NCBI GenBank assembly: GCA_964016885.1
Contig: OZ024751.1
Span: 7,130,001-7,194,000 of the forward strand
Direction: 5' to 3'
Source of the DNA: Eledone cirrhosa
Taxonomy: Eukaryota
Length of the DNA stretch: 64,000 nucleotides
Shown here: positions 3,383 through 60,281 of the stretch, in pieces
How positions within the stretch are numbered: the stretch's first letter is position 1
Layout: each line of letters starts with the position of its first letter
Translations under genes and position numbers: made by a program
The notes under the pieces: generated by a model
Database searches by the model: none
What the model was told of the DNA's origin: nothing
What the model saw: the letters and a program-made list of their open reading frames with translations, nothing else

Positions 3383-3835
3383 AGAGACGTAAAATAAGAA
3401 AATTATAAAATTAACTTACTTACTAAAATATCACTTCCAACTAATTAGTTTCTGGAACGGAGTAAATATATTTTCCGAAGAATATTATAGAGAAGCATTC
3501 CGTCGTCAGGAAAGTCTATTCTCATGTAAGTTTCCAGGCAAAGCGAGGACACTGGAAACTTATTAAAAATAATTCACTGGATAGGAAATAGCGAAGCGTG
3601 GACTGAATTCCAAGCCATTGAGAAAATCACTGCCTCTACGTCTGTGGCAAATTCAAAAAGAATCGAACACGTGACATCGAGGTCAATCAGTGGAAAGTGG
3701 TTTGCTAATAAGACAGCGGCCTGCCTACAACCGTAGCAGCAGTCATGGACAATATTGCTCGACAAATAATTTGGAGATAATAATAAAGAATTCATATCTA
3801 GTAACATATATATACATACAGATGCATATCTGTAT
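3383..3835 (-). mobile_element. Partial copy of the ~525-bp HHR-bearing non-coding unit (HHR at 3433-3515)
   Basis: Homologous to 27248-28484 and 42932-44134; flanked by (TA)n. Confidence 0.85.
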
Positions 3836-3933
3836 GTATATATATGTTACTAGATATGGATTCTTTATTATATACATATATATATATATATATGTATATA
3901 CATATATATACATACACATATATATATATATAC

Positions 3934-5987: not shown

Positions 5988-7682
5988 ATATAAGATAAAA
6001 AGATGGTTAAAGGAGTTCCATGTATTTTATTATGCGCATTTCAAAAACAAACATCATCATGCAATAATATTTGTGTTTTCATCAGATAAAACAGGAGAAC
6101 ATGATATGAAGGCTAAAAAACACTTGTGGATAGTGCAGTTTTAAATCAACATATGATAAGTGCTTTTAGATTGATGTGTGATATTGGGAAAAATATTTTA
6201 TTTAGAGAGGGGGGGGGTGGAAAGGATGAAAAAGGGGAGGAGATGAGAGGGAGAGATGGGTGATAGAGAGAAAGAGATAGTTTTTATAACTGAGAGAATA
6301 TATATTGTTTTACATAGAGAGGTTGAAAACCGTTGGAAGATAATGTATAAATTAAAAGAATTTGAAAATTAACGAAGGGAAGATATGTATGAGGAAAAAA
6401 TATTTTATTTAGGGAGGGGGGGAGTGGAAAGGATGAAAAAAAGGGGGAGGAGATGGGAGTGAAGGTGGAGAGGGAGAGATGGGTGATAGAGAGAAAGAGA
6501 TAGTTTTTATAACTGAGAAAAGATATATTGTTTTACATAGAGAGGTTGAGAACCGTTGGAAGATAATGTATAAATTAAAAGAATTTGAAAATTAACGAAG
6601 GGAATTTATGTATGAAGATAGAAAGAAAAAATAATAATTGTGGATGAATATTCTAACGTCAAAAAGAAGTGTATGTTGATAAGTATTGTGGCAATTTCAA
6701 AATTAACGAAGAGAAAAAATGATTAAGGTTTGTGTGTAGAAGGATTTGAGAAAAATAATGTGAAGTTAAAGTTTGTATATTGAAGGAATTGATATGTGCG
6801 AATATAGAGTTAATATGTATTAAGAATGAGTTCGTTGATGGGGAGAAAAAAATAATAAATTAAGGATGAAATTGAGATTAAAAAGTTTTATGATAGAGAG
6901 AAAAAATAATAATAATTGCGGATGAATATTCTAACGTCAAAAAAACAAATGTTTATGTTATGAAGGATTTTACAAGGTGAAGATAGAAAGAGGGTAATGA
7001 GTAAACAAGTATTATAGAGTGTATAATGCCCTTTGAAGTAAGGTAGGAAGATGGGTATATTTTAAAGAGGTGTATGTATATGTGCCTTTGAGAAAAGATT
7101 CTAAATTGATAAAGAATTGGATATTAACTGTATACTGTGTGAAAAGTCCTATGGAATTTATGCAGGCAGATAGAAAACAAATCTGTACGTTTATTTATTA
7201 TAGAATCTAGGTTAGAGATAATGGTAAATGTTTCATTTAGGCAGAGATTACAGATTTTAGATAGAGAGCTGTTCAAGTATGAGGATGCAGAAGAAACCTT
7301 CTTCCATCTTTTGGAAGAAGGTTTCTTCTGCATCCTCATACTTGAACTCCCCTTTTTCATCCTTTCCACCCCCCCTCTCTAAATAAAATATTTTTCGCAA
7401 TATCACACATCAATCTAAAACCACTTTTCATATGTCGATTTAAAACTGTACTATCCACAAGTGTTTTTTAGCCTTCATATCATGTTCTCCTGTTTTATCT
7501 GATGAAAACACAAATATTATTGCATGATGATGTTTGTTTTTGAAATGCGCATAATAAAATACATGGAACTCCTTTAACCATCTTTTGATCTCATATTACG
7601 TATACTCCAGTCCTACAAACTGTAGAGTGCTTCTTATCCGATATCTGCATTGCTTTATTGTACTACAATAAAACTCACCTCC

Positions 7683-9133: not shown

Positions 9134-9896
9134 TACAGTAATTCAAATTCAAGATCAAAATGAAAATCAAAATTAAAATCAAAATCAAAATTAAAATACA
9201 TTCGCCAGATAACACTGATCATGCAGAAGGATAGTTTGATAGTCAGATCTAGTAGATAGTGTATGCGTTATTTACAGATGTAGCATGCTAGTGTGTCTCA
9301 TTTTCATACGATTATTGTGTGGCAAGGTGTTACATGTAATGCAAGCACTCTAAACGGGTAAGCAAGAGTATTATGGTGGTTGTAGTGGTAGGGTATTTTT
9401 TGTATAGATCAAAAAAGTATGTGTGCAGAAACATAAAAAGAAAAAGAAGAAGCAAAAGAAATTTATAGTTTTCGTATCCGCCACCATTTTCACTTTCAGA
9501 AATGTGATGGATGTAATAACTATATCTTACATTTTCTGAATGGTCGTCGATACGAAAACTATAACTTTCTTTTGCTTTTTCTTTTTCTTTTTCTTTTTCT
9601 TTTTCTTTTTCTTTTTCTGCACACATACTTTTTTCATCTATAAAAAAAAATACCCTACCTCTAGAACCACCATAATACTCTTGCTTACCCGCTTAAAGTT
9701 CTTGCATTACATTGTAACACCTTGCCACGCAAGAATCGTATGAACATGAGACACACTTGCATGCTCCATGTGTAACTAACGCATACGCTACCTACTAGAT
9801 CTGATTATCAAACTATGCTCCTGCATTATCTGTGTTATCTGCCGAATGTATTTTAATTTTGATTCTGATTTTGATCTTGAATTTGAATTGCTGTAC
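9134..9896. repeat. Large imperfect palindrome (arms ~9134-9480 and ~9550-9896)
   Basis: tacagtaattcaaattcaagatcaaaa... mirrored by ...ttttgatcttgaatttgaattgctgta; no clear HHR or ORF. Confidence 0.85.
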
Positions 9897-12074: not shown

Positions 12075-12087
12075 TATAGATTATTAA

Positions 12088-12531
12088 CTAGACCGGAATA
12101 ATGCGGAAGCTCAAAAGAGCCACAGAATGTTATAATAAACCTTCAAAATTGTGGGTCTAGAGTTGTTGCTCAAAAATATTGTAATCATTATCTATGGTAC
12201 ACTCTGTGGCATCCTATTATAAAAGAGATACTCATAACGAATTCAACACGACACGATAATTATTTAAGCTAATGTTCAATATCTCATACTAGATGTTTAG
12301 TAATGATTTATATGAAATGCACTTAAACCGAATTCTATATTATAAATTCACTCAAATAATTATCGTGTCGTCTTGAGTTCGTTATGAGTCTCTTTTTTAT
12401 AAAAGGATGCCACAGAGTGTACGATAGATAATGATTACAATATTTTTGAGCAACAACTCTAGTCCCACACTTTTGAAGGTTTATTATAACATTCTGTGGC
12501 TCTTTTGATCTTGCGCATTTTTCAGGTCTAG
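12088..12531. mobile_element. MITE/foldback-like element with ~178-bp terminal inverted repeats
   Basis: 12088-12265 is the inverse of 12354-12531; TTAA at 12084-87 and 12533-36; no HHR or ORF. Confidence 0.75.
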
Positions 12532-14052
12532 ATTAATATTTTTTTAAGGCAACCCTTGTAATAACTCTAGTTAAACAGGATATATATTAATAATAAATTA
12601 TCGTTGTAATGTAATTAGATTATATAATTGTTATTTTATAAATGATCTTATAAATATTATTGTAAGATGTATAAAAATATTTTCAGAATTTTACTATAAA
12701 CAACTACAAAAAACAATCAATATTAAATAAATATATTTTAGATAATAATTGTTATAGTTGAATCAATAAAAAATAAATATTACATACATATAGTCTCACA
12801 TAATAATAAAAAAAATAATCTAACATAATAATAAAATAATCTGACATAAAACGAACAATAATAGGGACATATATACAAGTAAATATGATACAACTAATAT
12901 TCTAAGCATGTTATAACGAACTTAAAAAAATAGTTAATATAATTTTAAAAAATCATATATAAATTAACAATATAAGTTACCAAAACGAGAAAAATATTTT
13001 GATAATAAAACGACAAAATACAGGAGAGAGATTCGAAAGCGAAACGATAAATAAACGTGCAAATATAACGCTTTTGAGCAACAATTACTCTCGCTGGTTG
13101 ATTAGCCAATAAGGCGATGAAATTAGCCAATAAGACGATACATTACAAAACATGTTTTGAAGTGAAGGAATCGCCACGGCCAGCGATACCCCTTGACTAT
13201 TTTATTCACAAGCTACGCATATATTGTAAGATAACATGCAGACTTAAAACATTCTGTTGTTAGTCACTGCGTATATAACAGATATAAAAGATGTCCGTCA
13301 ATGTAAAAAAAAGGTCCCTATTTACTCCCTTCACAACTCTGTGTATGTTAGACTGACAGACAGGCACACAGACAGATAAACTGCGTGGAGATTGAGGTAT
13401 GCCGCACGTACACACACATACACGCATGGAAACGCACACACACACGAAAACTTACACACATGCACAGACTCACACATGTTGATAGCTTTTACTTTCTGTG
13501 GAATGCTGCACGCACGCACACACACATAAACATACGCGCACGGACATAAACACGCACATATATTAATATTTATTGCTTTCCTTCCCCTCTTATTTGCACA
13601 CGCACACACATGTCTCTACACTGACACATATAGATAGTGTATCCAACCACAGCGTTCACTTTGCCTCTCTCTCTCTCCCCTCTCACTCCAGCACTGGCAT
13701 TATGCATGTTAATTTAACTTTGGTGACGTTGAGGTGGGCGGAGTCTTTTGAAACATATCAACCAATGATAATCGAGAATTATGACGGAATAGTGACATTG
13801 TTCAAATTAATATATAGATGTATATATATGTGTATATATATGTGTATATACATACATCCATGCATATATAAATTCAGCGAGAATCGCATTTCGGCGCCAT
13901 GCTGGCAAGCGCTCCAATGGCTAAAAAACGAGAGCTATAAACATAGGTTATAAACGCCATACAAACTGAGAAGGCGGTCAAGAAGGCATTAACCGCCTAA
14001 GCCAAAAAACAAAAGTCAAGCTAAACAGTTCAGACAAAATAAATGACATAAT

Positions 14053-26820: not shown

Positions 26821-27215
26821 CATATATATATATATATATATATATATACATTTTGAGTATATGTTGTTTACCGACACTCAGTATGCAGATTGGATCACTC
26901 GACGCAGGTTGCTTTGTTTACTCCGGAGTGATCGAAAATAATTAAGTCAAATATGTAAAATTTGGCTTCGTTTATTATAAATTATAAATTTACTGGTATA
27001 TATATTTCGGTGACAGCCATCATTGACTGTGACTTCTTCAGGCAGACTGAATTGCTGTGGAAAAGACAGATACACATGTTGGTAAAGTGTGTTTAACTCC
27101 GTCAATACATCGATATGTCAAGCTCCTGGGTGTGTTGTTATTCCTCCGAGGAACTGGAATCATATGGTAATAAACGAAGCCAAATTTTACATCTTTTGAC
27201 TTACTTATTTTATAT

Positions 27216-27247
<32 letters not shown>

Positions 27248-27248
<1 letters not shown>

Positions 27249-28477
27249 AGGAATTTATATCTAGTAACATTTATATACACACAGATGCACATCAATGTTA
27301 GCAAATATATAGGTTTTGTCTTATTAACAATGTGGTTCAATGCATGGGGTTGCAGAACAATAATATGAGAGACGTAAAATAAGAAAATTATAAAATTAAC
27401 TTACTTACTAAAAAATCACTTCCAACTAATTAGTTTCTGGAATGGAGTAAATATATTTTCCGAAGAAACATATCGAAAATCATTCCGTCATCAGGAAAGT
27501 CTTTTTCCGTATAGGTCTCCAGCCATAGCGAGGACACTGGAAACTTATTAAAAAAATTATTCAGTGGAATGGAAATAGCGATGCGTGGACTGGATTCCAA
27601 GCCAATTAGAAAATCACTGCCTTTACGTCTGTGGCAAATACCAAAAAGAAACAATCACGTGACATCGAGGTCAATCAGTGCAGAGCGAGTGGTTATTAAG
27701 ACAGCGGCCAGCTTACTACCATAGTAGCAGTCATGGCCACGCATCGCTATTTCCATTCCACTGAATTATTTTTTTAATAAGTTTCCAGTGTCCTCGTTAT
27801 GCCTGGAGACCTATACGGAAAAAGACTTTCCTGATGACAGAATGATTTTCAATATGTTTCTTCGGAAAATATATTTACTCCATTCCAGAAACTAATTAGT
27901 TGGAAGTGATTTTTTAGTAAGTAAGTTAATTTTATAATTTTCTTATTTTACGTCTCTCATATTATTGTTCTGCAACCCCATGCATTAAACCACATTGTTA
28001 ATAAGACAAAACCTATATATTTGCTAGCATTGATGTGCATCTGTGTGTATATAAATGTTACTAGATATAAATTCCTTATAATTATCTCCAATTCATTTGT
28101 CGAGCAATATTTGGCCATGACTGCTACTATGGTAGTAAGCTGGCCGCTGTCTTAATAACCACTCGCTCTCCACTGATTGACCTCGATGTCACGTGATTGA
28201 TTCTTTTTGAATTTGCCACAGACGTAAAGGCAGTGATTTTCTCAATGGCTTGGAATCCAGTCCACGCATCGCTATTTCCATTCCACTGAATTATGTTTTA
28301 AATAAGTTTCCAGTGTCCTCGCTATGCCTGGAGACCTATACGGAAAAAGACTTTCTTGATGACGGAATGATTTTCGATATGTTTCTTCGGAAAATATATT
28401 TACTCCATTCCAGAAACTAATTAGTTGGAAGTGACTTTTTAGTAAGTAAGTTAATTTTATAAATTTCTTATTTTACG

Positions 28478-28484
<7 letters not shown>
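27248..28484 (+). mobile_element. Retrozyme-like element: inverted copy plus ~1.4 tandem copies of a 525-bp HHR unit
   Basis: Direct repeat with period 525 (27741 vs 28266); inverse arm 27248-27740; HHRs at 27418-27500(-), 27825-27907(+), 28350-28432(+). Confidence 0.85.
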
Positions 28485-28551
<67 letters not shown>

Positions 28552-29090: not shown

Positions 29091-29869
29091 TGTGGTGTCA
29101 AAACTCGTAGGTTCAAATCCCGCTACGGTTAAATCTGTCCTTCGTCCTTATCAGGTCGTTAAACTAATATACCAATAGTGCACTGCGCTCATTTTAATCG
29201 ACTTTCCTTTCAACAATCATTTACACTTTATTTGCTTCGAGATGCGTCGTTAAACAGTTTGTAATAGTGATTAAATCCGAATCGGGTTTTCTTAAAAATG
29301 TTTCCCGTCTAGCTAACTGAATTGAATTCTTATAGCACTTCATATCAGTTAGATACATTGAAATATTTTTTATATTCTCAAATATACGAAGAATTCATCT
29401 GTTTGTATCTATTTTATCTAAGTGATGTTCTAGAAAAAATCATGTTTTCTTTAACCACTACAGACCAAATGCCCAAGATATGACACCATAAAGAGTATTA
29501 TGGAAACCTTTCAACAATGAAACATTAATCCTGTCATGTATCCTATAGGAAAAAATTGTTGCACGTTTCATATACTAATGATAGATACTAAGAAATATAT
29601 TTTTAATATGTCTTCAGGCTGTGCCTGAAGTGAAGTCATCACGACAGCAGATGTGACTTAAAGTGGGTTAATCTTTATTGTAATTTATCATATGAAATAT
29701 GAAGTCTGCTTGTTGTTTATCGTATATAGTTAAAGGTATTAGACTCATGTGTAAGTAAATACGTAAATGATATGTCTGTGTCTGATACTTTCATTCAGCA
29801 TTGTGTTTACTTCCAATAAAAAGCAGAATATATATGGGAATACATTCATATATGCAGGTACACATAGTC

Positions 29870-29914
<45 letters not shown>

Positions 29915-29941
29915 TAGATATATATATATACATGTGTGTCA

Positions 29942-29986
<45 letters not shown>

Positions 29987-30025
29987 TATATAGATTGATA
30001 GATAGATAGATATACATGTGTGTCG

Positions 30026-30075
<50 letters not shown>

Positions 30076-30126
30076 CGACACACATGCATATATATATCTC
30101 TCTCTCTCTTTCTCTCTCTCTCTCTG

Positions 30127-30164
<38 letters not shown>

Positions 30165-30209
30165 CACCGACACACATGTATATATCTCTCTCTCTTTCTC
30201 TCTCTCTCC

Positions 30210-30257
<48 letters not shown>

Positions 30258-30314
30258 CGACACACATGTATATATCTCTCTCTCTTTCTCTCTCTCTCCC
30301 TCTCTCTCTCTCTA

Positions 30315-30348
<34 letters not shown>

Positions 30349-31211
30349 CACTACTATGTGTACCTGCATATATGAATGTATTCCCATATATATTCTGCTT
30401 TTTATTGGAAGTAAACACAATGCCGAATGAAAGTATCAGACACAGACATATCATTTACGTATTTACTTACACATGAGTCTAATACCTTTAACTATATACG
30501 ATAAACAACAAGCAGACTTCGTATTTCATATGATAAATTACAATAAAGATTAACCCACTTTAAGTCACATCTGCTGTCGTGATGACTTCACTTCAGGCAC
30601 AGCCTGAGGACATATTAAAAGTATATTTCTTAGTATCTATCATTAGTATATAAAACGTGCAACAATATTTTCCTATAGCATACATGACAGGATTAATGTT
30701 TCATTGTTGAAAGGATTTCCACAATAATCTTTATGGTGTCATATCTTGGGCATTTGGTCTGTAGTGGTTAAAGAAAACATGATTTTGTCTAGAACAACAC
30801 TTAGATACAATAGATACAGACAGATGAATTCTTCGTATATTTGAGAATATAAAAAAATATTTCAATGTATCTAACTGATATGAAGTGCTATAAGAATTCA
30901 ATTCAGTAAGCTAGACGTGAAACATGTTTCAGAAAATCCGATTCGGATTTAATCACTATTACAAACTTTTTAACGACGCACCTCGAAGCAAATAAAGGAT
31001 AAATGATTGTTGAAAGAAAGTCGATTAAAATGAGCGCAGTGCACTATTGGTATATTAGTTTAACGACCTGGTAAGGACAACAGACAAATTTAACCGTAGC
31101 GGGATTTCAACTTACGAGTTTTTTACACCACATGCATATATATATATATATATATATTTGAATTCCTTTTAGAGTTCATTGTCCCGCGCATGTATTGTTT
31201 TTTGGCGGTAA
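28986..31211. repeat. 2.2-kb palindrome centred on a (TA)n tract near 30050
   Basis: 28986-~29880 is the inverse of ~30345-31211 with scattered mismatches; inner ccgacacacatg units are also mirrored. Confidence 0.92.
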
Positions 31212-42835: not shown

Positions 42836-44134
<1,299 letters not shown>

Positions 44135-44149
44135 ACATATATATATATA

Positions 44150-47135
<2,986 letters not shown>

Positions 47136-54823: not shown

Positions 54824-56827
54824 ATGGCTAATTCCCCTCTGCACGAAGCAGCTGAAAGCCTTCCTCACAAAATAACACCTCACACCGACACCACCATTGT
54901 AAATGTTACTACGTTTGCCAACACAAAAAAAAATATAAGCAGTAGCAATATTTTAAATTTGTCTCAGGCAGACATTCATTTCCCGCCATTACCAATGACT
55001 GCAGGTGTTAAAGCCTCCACCACCACCACCACCGCGACAACCACCACCCTCACCAGCACCGCGACAACAAAAACAAAAGAAGAAAAAAATAAATTAACTC
55101 GTGATGTCGAAATGAAATCAAGCAAAATGGACTCTTGCGCACCAAAGACGAATGACGTCACCATCACCACAACTGAAACAAAAATTAAGATTAACACAAA
55201 TAACGATAGCAACAACAACAACAATGACATTATAAAACCGACCCTCAGTTTCGCCATCGTAGCAAAACAATTCGAAGCGTTCACGGTAACTCAAGAAGAT
55301 TTAGAAACTGCCAAACAAATGGTAAAGAAAGATGGGTACAGGGTCAGCCTCACCCCCCCCCCCACCTAATAAAATGGAGCATCGGCGCCTATGCACCGTG
55401 TCGAATAGAACAATAAATGTAAAATCGCGCCGAGTGGAACGGGCATCCGAGTCCCAAATCCAAAAAGCTTTGGGACATGTGTGGGCAAGAAAAACCCACA
55501 TCAGACGTGGGCAAAAGTATGGAACCGTGTACGTGTTCTTTGAAACACCAGAGGAGGCTAGAGAACACTCCATGGCCCCATTAAAAAGTGACGACCTCAC
55601 ACTCGTCCCAAGCTATTGTGGCCAGAGACTCGTAAAGATCAGGGTGACCCACGTTCCACCGGCCATCGAAATTCCCTGGCTAATAGCGGCTGTCCTCGCC
55701 GGCATCGAAGCCAACACGAAAATAATAGCAGTAGCAAAAGAAAAGCAGGAAAACTGGTCCGGATCTGGGATGGAGCTCCTGATCCAAGCGGACCAAAAAA
55801 GCATTGAGGAGATCCCAGAGGTAATAGACCTCACTGACGGCAGCCACCTCACGGTAATTGTCGAGGGCAGAAGACCTAGGTGTGTCGTTTGTGGTGAAGG
55901 AACCCACCTAAGTGCTTTCTGCCCTCAGGCTAAAAGGTTGAGGCCACCTCTCCTACCCACCCCAGTGACACAACCATCAACACCACCAGTAGCAGAGATG
56001 GCAGCAACAACTGTAGCAGCAACAACAGAAGCAACTATAACAGCAACAACCCCAGCAACAGTAGCAAAACCAACACCACTACCACCACCAGCAAAACCAA
56101 CACCACCACCACCCAACGCTTCAGAACTAGCACCAGCGCCTACACCATCCACCACACCACAACCAAAACTAACGGCTGTGGAGGATTTTCCACTCCCCGG
56201 CCTATCACAACTGGAGACAGATTGTGGCGACGAGGAGTGGGAAATGATATCCGGAAAAAAAAAAGAAACCAAAAAAGAAAAAATTCTCTTCCTTCTCCCT
56301 CCAAAAACAAAATGCAGAGGGAAACAAATAAACTAAGAAACAAAAAAGTTAGGACATATATGCCACCATCCACACCAGCATCACCAACCCCATCAACCCA
56401 AACACCAACACCATCACCATCACCATCATTAACTCCAACACCACCATCACCTACACCACAAAAGTCACCAAAATGCGAAACAGAAACAAACCCACAACAA
56501 ACGCAAACAAAACAAAACAACCAAAACGATACACACTACACAGCATTAAATTTGAACAACAAGCAATTATTACACTACATCCAACACAACACCAGCATCA
56601 CAGAAAAAGACTACACAACAACCCCAAAATTCACACCACCTCCACACATACAAATCACTCGCATCACACAGAAAACGTACATGACACTAAAACAAAAATT
56701 CCCAAAAGGCATCGGAGACTTCCGACAAGCACTCTCCAGGAGGATTTATAAGGACATCCTTCCTGAGGAGGCCACAAGCAGTGAAAAGGATGGAAAAACC
56801 GTCCTTCCCCTACGAGAAGTAAGGTAA
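54824..56827 (+). CDS. Tx1 ORF1 (CCHC zinc knuckle), split by two homopolymer frameshifts
   Basis: ORFs 54824-55369, 55332-56336 (CVVCGEGTHLSAFC) and 56222-56827 overlap at a C11 run (55353-63) and an A10 run (56255-64). Confidence 0.8.
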
Positions 56828-56861
56828 GTGGTCTTTCCCATCTTTTCCACTCCTTTTCAAC

Positions 56862-59800
56862 ATGACCTCACTCAGAATAGGCAGCATAAATGCGCGTGGC
56901 TTGGGGTCGTCATGGAAGCAGGGCCACCTGCTCAACGACCTCAGGTCACTAAACATAGATGTAGTGGCCATCAGCGAGACCAGAATCTCCGAAGCACAGG
57001 CTTTCGCACCGATCTTCGGCGGCTACGATGTGTACGCATATTCCAGCCGTCCGGGATCGGGGGGAGGAGTTGCTGTGCTTTTTCGGAGAGGTTTGGATCT
57101 TGCCATACGGGCCATCTTCCTGGACCCAGAAGGTAAGTTGGTGGTGCTGGACGTGACCAGCGGAGACGGGCAAGCTTTCAGTTTAGTGGCCGTCTATGCC
57201 CCGACAGGAGCAGGGCGGCCTGATTTCTTCCGGCGTCTGGAGACCTTTCTTGGAATGTCCCGCTCTTTAGTGTTAGTGGGCGACTGGAACGGGATCTTAG
57301 ATGCACGCTGGGATTGTGTGGGATTAGTGGATAGGGAAGGAGGGTGCAAGAGTCTCACCAACCTGCTCAGACGTTTTGAACTGTCTGACAGGTACCGAAT
57401 GGATTTCCCGAATGTACCAATGTGGACTTGGACAAATCGCATAGGGTCATCCAGATCATATCTAGATAGAGTATTTTGTAGGGAAATAGATAGGTCTAGC
57501 ATAGGCTGTCCACAATTCAAGATAGTCAGCTACACGGACCACAAATTCGTGATCTGTGTGCTTGACTTAGATAGGCTTCATAGACGAGGACCCGGCTACT
57601 GGAAGCTAAACGCGTCCTTACCAGCGCGCAAGGCCTACAGAGACCGGATTAGCGAACTAGTTAAGCGGGCGTTGACGGGGGCCATCGTCAACAACAAGTG
57701 GTGGTTTGCTCTGAAAAGAGCAATTAGAATAGAGTCCATTAGGTTTAGTAAGACTTTAGCAATAGAGAAAAATAGAGCAGAGGGAGAATTAGTTAGAAAA
57801 TTAGATGAGGCGCTTAGCAAAGGCATCGCGACGGACGTACTTGCGGCGAAATTGGCCCTTGACCAATTCTTCAATGCAAAGCACGAAGGCTGCGTTGTCA
57901 GAGCTAGGGTGCGTGCTCTCAGACACGAGGGGACGAAAGCCGTTCAATGGGCCCGAGTGGCGGAGGCGCGTCGTGGCCACAAAGCCACGATCCGGTCTTT
58001 GGTGGACCACGACGGGCGCATGCTACTCGATCCCGGGCAAATGTGTGAAGCTTTTCAGCGACACTTCGCTCAACTATTCGGGGGCAGTGCCGGGCCGGAT
58101 CGAGGGATGGACTTTAGTGTCTACCTCGACGGACTGCCGCGGCTTTCGGCCACTGAGGCGGAGTGTTGCGAAAAGCCGATAACAACCGCTGAAGTACGGG
58201 ATGCAATGACTAGTTGCACAAGGGGTAAATCGCCTGGTTTGGATGGTCTGCCCTATGAACTTTACGTACAAATGCCAAACTTGTTCGGAGGCCTCTTGGC
58301 GGACGTCTACTGCAACTGGCAACAGAACGGGAGAATTCCCAGCTCTGTGAGCCGAGGAGCGGTGGCGCTGCTGAGAAAGGATCCGAACAAGGGGGATAAC
58401 ATACATAATTTTAGGCCCATAACTCTGCTAAACACAGAGTTCAAGATTTTGGCCAAGGTGCTAGCAAAGAGGTTGGCGCTTGTCGTTGGTGGTCTGGTGA
58501 GAGAGGCACAGACATGCGCCATTCCCGACAGATCCATCCACGACAACCTCCACTTCATGCGATACATCGTAGAGAGGGTAGCTAGGGAACCTGGCACGGG
58601 TGGGTCTTTGATCAATTTAGATCAGTCGAAAGCCTTCGATAGGGTCGACCATCGTTACCTAGCGGCAGTCCTGAGGGCGGCTGGCTTTGGGCCCGTCTTC
58701 AGAGGCTGGATCGCTTCCAAGCACAGCGACATCTGCTCTGCAGTGAGAGTGAACGGTCACCTTTCGGAACCGTTCAACATCATGCGCTCGGTCCGCCAAG
58801 GATGTCCCCTCTCGTCCCTATTGTACGTATTGACTCTCGAGCCATTACTGCACAAGCTGGAGACGTTGAGGGGGGTCCCGCGCGAACTAGGATGCGGAAG
58901 ATCCGTGTCAGCATATGCCGACGATGTCACCGTAGTGGTGTCGAACGCCAAACACATCGAGGCGATCGGCACTACACTAAGAGAATACGAAGCGGTGACA
59001 GGAGCAATGGTCAACCAGGAAAAGTCAGTGGGCCTGCAGCTCGGCACCTGGAGAGGCAGGTCCATGCCGTCCAACAGCGTCGTCGGGCGCTGGACGGACG
59101 GACCGGTTAAATTGCTAGGGGTCTGGTTCGGTCCAGACCTCCAGACGGGCAAAAACTGGGACGAGGTGACGAGCAGGGTGGCTTCTCTCACCCAGAAATG
59201 GGCCGAGAGGAAGCTATCCCTGAAAGGTCGAGCGGAGGTGGCGAATGCATACATCGCATCCGTCATCTACTACCGCCTGACCGTCGTACCTTGTCCTAAG
59301 CCCCGCCTGACTGCGCTGGAGCGTTTGCTCTTTCGCTTCTTGTAGAAGGGACGCGCTCCGATGGTCAGGCGGTCCATCTGCTGTCAACACCCGCTACGTG
59401 GAGGGCTGGGCATGCCGTGGCTGATGATGCGCAGACACGCGCTCAGGCTACGACATCTCCACCTCTTCCTCGACGGTGATCAGGTGTGGTCGCCGTTTGC
59501 AAGGCACGTTTTTCCCCAGCTCGTCTCATTGACGGAGCTGCAGTCCTGGGTCAAGCGAAGACCGAGAGGGAGCGCTTGGAGACTGGAATGTCTTCAGGCG
59601 CTCACAGCCCTCGACCAATCGGGCAATGTGATCGGTGGAAACTCCACCTTGGCGTTCTATAGGGGATTAGCGGAGGGGAAGAGCGACGACGTACTTGGAG
59701 AAACTCTAGGCGTCGACGAAAATCAACTAGCCAATCTCTTCGGAAGGACTTTCGGGCCGGGCCCTATGGACAACTTCCAGAAATCCCTGGCCTGGCAGTG

Positions 59801-60281
59801 CTACCGAGGAGCTTTGCCAGTTCGGGATAAACTCTACAGGCATGGAGGTGCCGTCAGCCGGGCATGTCCGAGATGCGCGCAGGGCGACGAAACCGTCCTG
59901 CACGCACTCGTCCAGTGTCTGAGCATTGCTGACTTGTGGGTTTATGTCGAACACCTGCTGTCACGTGTAGGACCTATCCAGCTATCAGCTGAGTCCATCG
60001 TGAGGATTGCCCCGCCCCCTTCCTTTAGCCTGGAAGGGCAGGCAGTTTTTATCTGTCTGGTGGCCATGGCGAAAGAGATAGTATGGTGGACACGTTTGAA
60101 AGGGCTGAAGACGAGCACTTACCTCTTCAGTGATGCCCTGATTAACTTTTTCAAATTTCATTTGAAAAGGAAAATCAGGGTAGAGAGGGAAGTGCTCTCT
60201 TCCCAGCATTTTGTTGAAAGATGGGTGAGAGAAGCAAGTATGGCCCGAATGAATGGGCCTTCTCTGAGTATGTGTCTGTAA
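56862..60281 (+). CDS. Tx1 ORF2: APE endonuclease + RT + Cys-rich C-terminus, one in-frame TAG at 59343-45
   Basis: SINARGL, SET, VYAP, GDWN, YLDR, TDH; KSPGLDG, FRPITLLN, DQSKAFD, RQGCPLS, AYADD; CPRC...ETVLHAL..C. Confidence 0.95.

Follow-up and report, generated by a model that had tools for sequence, protein, structure and literature searches.

A 64,000-nt window of Eledone cirrhosa DNA (the whole stretch that we analysed) carries three insertions of a tandem repeat that, judged by its sequence features, is a new animal non-LTR retrozyme, apparently acting like a non-autonomous Penelope-like element. Each unit has a predicted type I hammerhead, the repeats, each some hundreds of base pairs long, run head to tail, GC is below 50% (34–35% in the units), and there is neither coding sequence nor an LTR. 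The account that we hold with good confidence is a non-LTR retrozyme whose insertion into (TA)n was probably the work of an enzyme encoded by a Hydra-type Penelope-like retrotransposon of the same genome. A preliminary description of this DNA had proposed a retrozyme mobilised by Penelope-like elements (PLEs); the dispersed, ORF-less tandem family with Penelope-type footprints in (TA)n stands, while the monomer release that it placed at this locus does not. The element itself is an ordinary case of a known kind, and the part that merits specialist attention is a one-base hotspot at unit position 417.

Structure of the element and its relatives in the window

Coordinates are positions within the window, and the unit is numbered 1–525 starting at 27960. 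The element at 27245–28484 consists of an inverted arm on the minus strand (27245–27739; unit positions 153–525, then 1–121) placed head to head with a sense arm of 1.4 units (27737–28484), with (TA)n on both sides (27211–27248 and 28484–28548). The arms meet at a fold-back junction near 27735–27740, at a 6-bp palindrome. The sense arm is made up of a 5'-truncated unit (27737–27959, plus strand; positions 303–525) and a full 525-bp unit (27960–28484, plus strand). One fixed end, Y, abuts (TA)n at the end of the full unit, and a second, X, abuts (TA)n at the end of the inverted arm; a 121-nt tail (27960–28080, plus strand) separates the two. Directly past each end lies a bulged hairpin, hairpin 1 past Y (intact copy at 27335–27358, minus strand) and hairpin 2 past X (28085–28105, plus strand). 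A 17-nt block with a CACGTG palindrome (28187–28203, plus strand) has the same letters in a sister family that is 69% identical, and could conceivably be a promoter element.

The sole intact hammerhead of the locus, a predicted type I ribozyme, is on the minus strand (27418–27500; core start 27494, predicted cut after 27424). Both sense hammerheads are damaged. In the first (27825–27907; predicted cut after 27901) G10.1 has changed to A at 27839, which disrupts the first pair of helix II, and the second (28350–28432; predicted cut after 28426) has the C3U change, at 28356, that had already been noticed. Because both are damaged, this copy would not release the 525-nt monomer formerly predicted from it, and within the model proposed below it is a dead daughter insertion. 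The hypervariable loop-2 position, 417, is A at 27851 and G at 28376 on the plus strand, and G at 27474 on the minus strand.

The second insertion (42930–44135) belongs to a 543-bp subfamily and has an X-ended inverted arm (42930–43469) and a Y-ended sense arm (43468–44135). Its full predicted hammerheads are at 43988–44057 (plus strand) and 43198–43129 (minus strand); the first sense hammerhead is 5'-truncated at 43468, which leaves one full sense ribozyme at the locus. The third insertion (3383–3871) is a partial copy from an older subfamily, with a Y-ended arm (3383–3830, minus strand), an X-ended arm (3828–3871, plus strand) and a predicted hammerhead at 3509–3439 (minus strand).

Several points of the preliminary description hold at these loci: the tandem periods of 525 bp (between the predicted cuts after 27901 and 28426) and 543 bp (43514 to 44057), the third copy at 3383–3830, here placed on the minus strand, and the absence of coding. 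Two monomers read as circles have no ATG-started frame longer than 53 aa and no stop-free run longer than 76 aa. An inverted arm had been seen in two copies only, but all three have one (3828–3871 in the third). The common end ...acgtctct against (TA)n is real, but it is not the only one, as the second fixed end lies 121 nt further.

Folded as circles, two monomers are 57–60% paired, with z of −2.5 and −3.3 (30 shuffles each); the second was opened 6 nt off its predicted cut, which is immaterial for a circle. A target-site duplication is unreadable inside (TA)n. Further long inverted-arm elements lie in the window at 9163–9884, 12082–12538, and 29101–31121.

A dispersed tandem family

A search of the 3.0-Gb genome with the unit returned 1,993 candidates, of which 39 were scored, and full units 97–98% identical were found on many contigs. 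A 22-nt core pattern has at least 2,339 exact matches in the genome, and its reversed control has none. We examined 97 non-redundant loci (the best matches and the first pattern matches, contig 1) plus forty picked for multiple copies. Unit length is 521–543 bp, and at least four subfamilies are present among the loci examined. The loci are composed of unit pieces in colinear order, unit-only and set in (TA)n. Head-to-tail arms reach 4.9 units, and the predicted cut site is passed twice or more in 45 of 151 arms. Head-to-tail monomers without an ORF had been suggested as something to look for genome-wide, and dispersed tandem units of this kind are what we found.

The sister family has a unit of about 559 bp and is younger, with copies 98–99% identical and arrays of up to thirteen units. 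Its own pattern has up to 2,528 matches, a few of which come from a third variant. The sister family has compensatory changes in helices I and II and no UUCG loop (examples at L040:102-655 and G000:C3:9135992-9143316).

The predicted hammerhead ribozyme

In the hammerhead, helix I is followed by CUGANGA and one additional C; after a helix II of 6 bp, which has a long loop, come an additional A, GAAA, helix III (a palindrome) and the triplet GUU, and the predicted cut follows unit position 467. By motif and pairing criteria 128 of 165 cores are intact, in a set partly picked by the core pattern. A C.A mismatch at the base of helix II is almost constant (163/165 and 62/62). The core, helices I–III and this mismatch are kept across the subfamilies and the sister family, while loop 2 drifts. 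In a covariation analysis of thirteen hand-picked sequences, whose relatedness inflates the control, 93.6% of cells are paired and five pairs have two-sided changes, four of them in a cUUCGg-capped hairpin inside loop 2. Rfam gives no hammerhead in 27240–28490 at E up to 10 and none among the 150 listed of 188 window matches, so the hammerhead is called from motif, pairing, and covariation. When five ribozyme regions were folded in isolation, the minimum-energy structures were mostly not hammerheads (z −2.4 to +1.0). An alternative hammerhead fold cutting near position 442 was dropped by eye, as it is without helix I.

The C.A mismatch, the GUU triplet and the palindromic helix III are departures from an optimum ribozyme. 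There are precedents in published work, which is cited here and below in part: Penelope hammerheads, poor cleavers in vitro, are described with one additional base after A9, a G10.1–C11.1 pair and a helix III that is a palindrome (PMC4209133); the axolotl retrozyme ribozyme HHR_Amex2 has a U.U mismatch at the base of helix II and cleaves weakly as a monomer and better as a dimer (PMC7229834); and eight of nine Xenopus retrozyme dimers were without cleavage in vitro (bioRxiv 10.64898/2026.07.22.740005). Self-cleavage by the family's ribozyme is plausible as far as its letters go.

An A6G core change (unit position 400) recurs in six loci (L089, L103, L083, L075, L099, L178) and is present in all five units of L089; editing and escape from cleavage are both possible causes. 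At least five other hammerhead families lie in the window, on the plus strand at 7499, 18343, 24571, 26635, and 34776 and on the minus strand at 6085, 24340, 25931, 34394, and 41344. In several of these the base of helix II is mismatched, and most lie near a bulged hairpin of the same shape as those described here.

Two fixed ends in (TA)n

Across the family, the 5' end of an arm varies and its 3' end is fixed at one of two points, Y at positions 523–525 or X at positions 119–123 of the next unit. A TA run lies within 60 nt of 71/73 X ends and 76/78 Y ends (147/151 together), as expected from the earlier proposal of targeting to (TA)n. Among 58 two-armed insertions, 47 pair X with Y, none pairs X with X, two were called Y+Y, and nine have one irregular end. 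The X+Y count (47/49) differs from the one half expected (p = 2e-12), and on inspection the two Y+Y calls are not true ones: one is X+Y with a deleted tail, and the other continues 25 nt into the tail. The pairing is also X+Y in 10/10 two-armed insertions of the sister family and in all twenty-two that could be called among forty further loci (eighteen were not called). L1-style twin priming from one linear RNA was rejected, since the arm sequences overlap and X arms rarely stop at Y.

Six single-armed copies (L006, L013, L020, L024, L031, L083) stop at the same TA, positions 483–484, 16 nt past the predicted cut. Head-to-head fusions in which the other arm comes from an unrelated hammerhead family, and in which TA is scarce or absent between the arms, occur at L006:1-1458, L014:1065-1196, L055:1967-2275, and L056:1639-1740; the fusion at L006 looks like Y plus X and that at L055 looks like X plus X. 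Such fusions suggest that two different RNAs can serve one insertion.

A candidate Penelope-type helper

The bulged hairpins, at unit positions 8 and 126, lie 5–7 nt beyond both ends and share one shape: a short stem, a two-base 3' bulge, a second short stem, and a loop of 5–7 nt. The same shape, with other sequence, is found 7 and 2 nt beyond two ends of family P (19 and 27 copies use them); because the retrozyme family and family P supplied the hairpin descriptor, those two matches are by construction. The sister family has the shape too, as do several further repeat families in the window, compared with 0.00–0.03 per unit in shuffles.

Family P is autonomous and young, with frames of 784–790 codons and 3,531-bp tandem units that are 99.96% identical (L165–L166). 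Its 784-codon frame has RWR, DKT, and CxCX5C motifs and a C-terminal endonuclease, and matches the Hydra-clade features given in the cited part of PMC8557442; a Pfam match to this frame was not obtained. Its unit of 3.5 kb exceeds the usual length of less than 3 kb for that clade in the same source. The two ends of family P are 83 nt apart, and it has a U3–A8 type hammerhead-like motif with a long helix III. A truncated family P copy with Hydra-type motifs lies near the element as a separate insertion (44277–46971, minus strand).

Since each end of the retrozyme precedes a bulged hairpin of a kind common with an intact Hydra-type Penelope element, mobilisation by the co-resident Penelope machinery is likely. 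The link between the retrozyme and family P is the hairpin shape only, and no sequence likeness to the P ends was found. Families P and Q were also tried as sequence partners and rejected: in blastn neither the main nor the sister unit has any likeness to 63 loci of these two autonomous families beyond neighbouring copies. As the unit is without such likeness, family P is a candidate helper only. Origin from an autonomous Penelope element by internal deletion is possible; the sequence comparison covered families P and Q.

The window also has a LINE-like element at 56823–60281 (plus strand) with frames of 840 and 311 codons, which we take to encode endonuclease and reverse transcriptase, and upstream of it a frame at 55326–56336 that is presumably gag-like.

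The template of reverse transcription

Units and arms within one insertion resemble each other, which points to one template per insertion. In the youngest subfamily the distance is 0.010–0.014 within an insertion versus 0.024 between loci. Rare variants are common to units of one locus at 0.26–1.4 per 100 columns versus 0.004–0.04 between loci, which makes such sharing 15 to 100 times commoner within an insertion, and it extends across arms. This fits a circular template, and it also fits a homogeneous uncut multimer or later gene conversion. The predicted cut site is crossed 211 times with one deletion and no insertions, and these near-scarless crossings mean that the template was continuous there. 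With forced passes removed, thirteen 5' ends fall in the 26 nt after the cut versus 5.1 expected (2.6-fold, p = 0.002); the uncorrected test gives 15/151 (p = 0.07), and an unrelated hairpin at positions 64–90 gathers more 5' ends. A-to-G editing was rejected: it stands at 21 versus 12 in the youngest subfamily, where p = 0.02 comes from one of 24 tests, and is absent in the other three sets.

In the model that we propose, intact tandem copies elsewhere would be transcribed, cut and closed into circles, a step that we judge slightly better than an even call. The palindrome of helix III makes it likely that cutting would take place in dimers. Very probably the enzyme would then cut (TA)n, bind the two hairpins, and prime one cDNA per DNA end, at Y and at X. 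Each cDNA would continue through the cut site and the two would join by microhomology. At position 417 the enzyme would likely insert a base regardless of template in about 30% of passes, mostly dA and then dG.

A sizeable minority of our confidence goes to a different template: the same element and enzyme would be at work, on a multimeric RNA transcribed from a tandem source copy and left uncut; circles would not form, and the hammerhead would be weak or could be dispensed with. Arms that cross the predicted cut site without scars would be expected from such a transcript, and the weakening features of the ribozyme, the A6G change throughout L089 and the mosaic structure of the thirteen-unit sister-family array agree with it. 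The Anolis Penelope enzyme, moreover, mainly uses uncut RNA in the cited part of PMC11167929. Against an uncut multimer, the core, the three helices and the C.A mismatch have been kept while loop 2 has drifted, rare variants are common to the units and arms of one insertion, and 5' ends are modestly enriched after the predicted cut. We also infer that 5'-truncated copying of linear multimers would shorten arrays every generation.

The loci also bear on whether the unit belongs to something larger. A Penelope protein match occurs somewhere in 24 of 136 loci and within 400 nt of the unit in eleven, at scattered distances and to scattered parts of the protein, and six of these eleven are the terminal tail of family P. 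At L099, the sole one of the eleven read in detail, a coding element's 3' end is fused in-strand to the unit at position 194. Among the 136 loci the unit is never a regular terminal repeat of a coding element, although the preliminary description had allowed that it might always be the terminal repeat of an ORF-bearing PLE, and neither the frames of the unit nor the protein matches around these loci gave an RT plus GIY-YIG frame in the unit. It is thus very improbable that the unit is only pLTR debris of an ORF-bearing Penelope element yet to be found: a hammerhead, two ends and a tail do make up a pLTR layout, about 136 loci were examined out of at least 2,339 cores and L099 offers its fusion, but unit runs into unit for up to 4.9 units (thirteen in the sister family) with no room for a frame, and the few close protein matches are scattered or belong to the tail of family P.

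A hypervariable site at unit position 417

Position 417 is the 5' base of the cUUCGg-capped loop-2 hairpin, its last pair in the copying direction, and the partner A is invariant. In the youngest subfamily the position reads T79 C26 G17 A13 and is discordant within 17 of 47 multi-copy loci, versus 251/15,955 for other columns (Fisher p = 7e-19). The 543-bp subfamily behaves in the same way, with discordance in 9/25 loci versus 131/6,535 (p = 1e-9). Discordance within insertions is thus more than twenty times that of other columns, which stand at about 2%. Two hand-counted samples selected without regard to the base gave T66 C14 A10 G10 (the first 100 of 369 matches) and T44 A27 C21 G5 (97 of 97 matches), and the control positions 412 and 435 gave 0–1 of 100. 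All four bases occur on one haplotype background, and the minor bases are partly inherited, with some loci sharing one across up to five units. The two positions beside 417 are the next most variable, and changes at 416 stand beside T417 in 11/13 cases. There is one insertion and no deletion at 417 in 200 passes, and a pile of 5' ends there is not significant (4 versus 2.2 expected, p = 0.17). The sister family, which is without the UUCG loop as well as the hot site, has no four-base column, and neither have the 3' regions of families P and Q.

We compared models on 71 loci, leaving out L234 and two separate neighbouring insertions. The best replaces any base in about 30% of copies, with a draw of T54 C21 A17 G9 (AIC 357.8); replacement of U only (375.5) and independence (419.6) are worse, and a U-specific reading was dropped on this comparison. 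Mixed templates could mimic part of the any-base pattern. Read in the cDNA, the replacement spectrum is dA over dG over dT over dC, and purine-first spectra are as found for untemplated addition or a non-instructive template. In the older subfamilies T is found in 39/49 units and 2/14 loci are discordant, compared with 79/135 and 17/47 in the youngest; this lower degree of scrambling speaks against a DNA clock. Copies with T are no more and no less diverged than the others (p = 0.28). We consider it probable that the hot site arises in reverse transcription. A description of a single hypervariable site in retrozyme or Penelope copies was not found in the openly accessible literature searched.

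As to the cause, we rank a stall at the hairpin base first, a modified nucleotide or odd linkage second, and a DNA hotspot or error last. In the first of these, which we favour tentatively and at somewhat less than an even chance, the enzyme would halt once the cUUCGg-capped hairpin has been copied, put in one base that is untemplated or templated by fold-back, and go on in register, the RNA being unmarked. The place of 417 as the last pair in the copying direction, beside an invariant partner, points this way, as do the cDNA spectrum, the better fit of the any-base model, the joint lack of UUCG loop and hot site in the sister family, and the variability of both neighbouring positions. Untemplated additions usually bring indels, however, and only the single insertion was seen; the older subfamilies, too, keep the UUCG loop and yet are less discordant.

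A modified nucleotide or unusual linkage in cellular RNA, misread by the enzyme so that the genomic copies are a fossil reverse-transcription signature, is a rather unlikely second possibility. A single-site, four-base and indel-poor error that spills over to the adjacent position, as at 416 beside T417, resembles the signatures of modified ribonucleosides in the cited part of PMC7466121, but the U-only model fits worse than the any-base model and 5' ends do not pile up significantly at the site. The specific form of this idea, in which a fixed chemical mark or unusual linkage sits in loop 2 of the retrozyme RNA and its misreading by Penelope has been fossilised in thousands of copies, we regard as less likely still.

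It is improbable that the cause is a hotspot in DNA that acts once the copy has inserted, or an error in the assembly: short inverted repeats can raise local mutation rates, and the age comparison is weakened by sequence contexts that differ between subfamilies, but older subfamilies are not more scrambled, T and non-T copies do not differ in divergence, the pairing partner is invariant, whole loci of up to five units share a minor base, and other read sets (three contig sets from one sample of unrecorded kind, about 1.4 Gb each) have alternative 60-nt contigs centred on 417, their differing letter not being listed.

Significance

The entry of animal retrozymes into genomes has been proposed and not demonstrated, according to the publications cited here. 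The family lends itself readily to a test: its RNA is defined, hairpins mark the two predicted start sites, and an intact enzyme is co-resident and suits a published in vitro assay. If the hotspot at 417 does come from reverse transcription, each repeat of an array goes back to a copying of RNA, not to duplication at the DNA level. The hotspot may then also be relevant to the high variability that Penelope hammerheads are reported to have (PMC4209133, in part). Should the modification reading be true, each repeat would record one pass round an RNA circle, the copies would be a genomic read-out of RNA modification and rolling-circle reverse transcription, and there would be a mechanism for the unexplained variability of Penelope hammerheads.

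Comparison with known systems

Animal non-LTR retrozymes have already been described (Cervera and de la Pena 2020, PMC7229834; Li, Clavereau and Pollet 2026, bioRxiv 10.64898/2026.07.22.740005). Like them, in the cited parts of these two publications, the Eledone cirrhosa family consists of tandem units that are low in GC, do not code and have one type I hammerhead apiece; it is dispersed as monomers to multimers and shares its genome with Penelope-like elements. Its mismatch where helix II begins likewise has a precedent, in HHR_Amex2. The unit of 525–543 nt is above the 150–450 nt of PMC7229834 and inside the 51–972 nt of bioRxiv 10.64898/2026.07.22.740005. RNA and circles have been demonstrated for animal non-LTR retrozymes, whereas this family is known from genomic DNA alone. 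Two fixed ends, inverted arms, end hairpins and a hypervariable site are present here and are not described for animal non-LTR retrozymes in the cited parts of either publication.

These features have their counterparts among Penelope-like elements. The purified Anolis Poseidon PAc enzyme starts at two internal sites that lie downstream of the hammerhead and are separated by a tail, and it cuts and extends both DNA strands (PMC11167929, in part). The retrozyme resembles Poseidon PAc and the Hydra clade (PMC11167929; PMC8557442, both in part) in having a hammerhead followed by two start sites with a tail, an inverted 5'-truncated arm, partial tandems, and AT-rich or (TA)n targets. It differs from Penelope-like elements with a C-terminal endonuclease, as they appear in these sources, in having no frame, a tail of 121 nt versus 30–40 nt, and no likeness to families P and Q.

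Non-autonomous Chlamys elements such as MRC1, in the cited part of PMC8557442, are likewise non-coding, with pLTR-like ends and insertions of multiple copies set head to tail, and are moved by a Penelope-like partner, for which we have a candidate here. MRC1-type elements share the 3' sequence of their partner and are mostly without a hammerhead in that source, whereas the link here is through the hairpin only and a hammerhead is present. Finally, the reverse-transcription signatures of modified ribonucleosides (PMC7466121, in part) were measured in vitro on tRNA, and the pattern at 417 is found in genomic copies, without a clear arrest and over several template bases; the two have in common a mismatch at a single site that involves several bases, and effects on the adjacent position.
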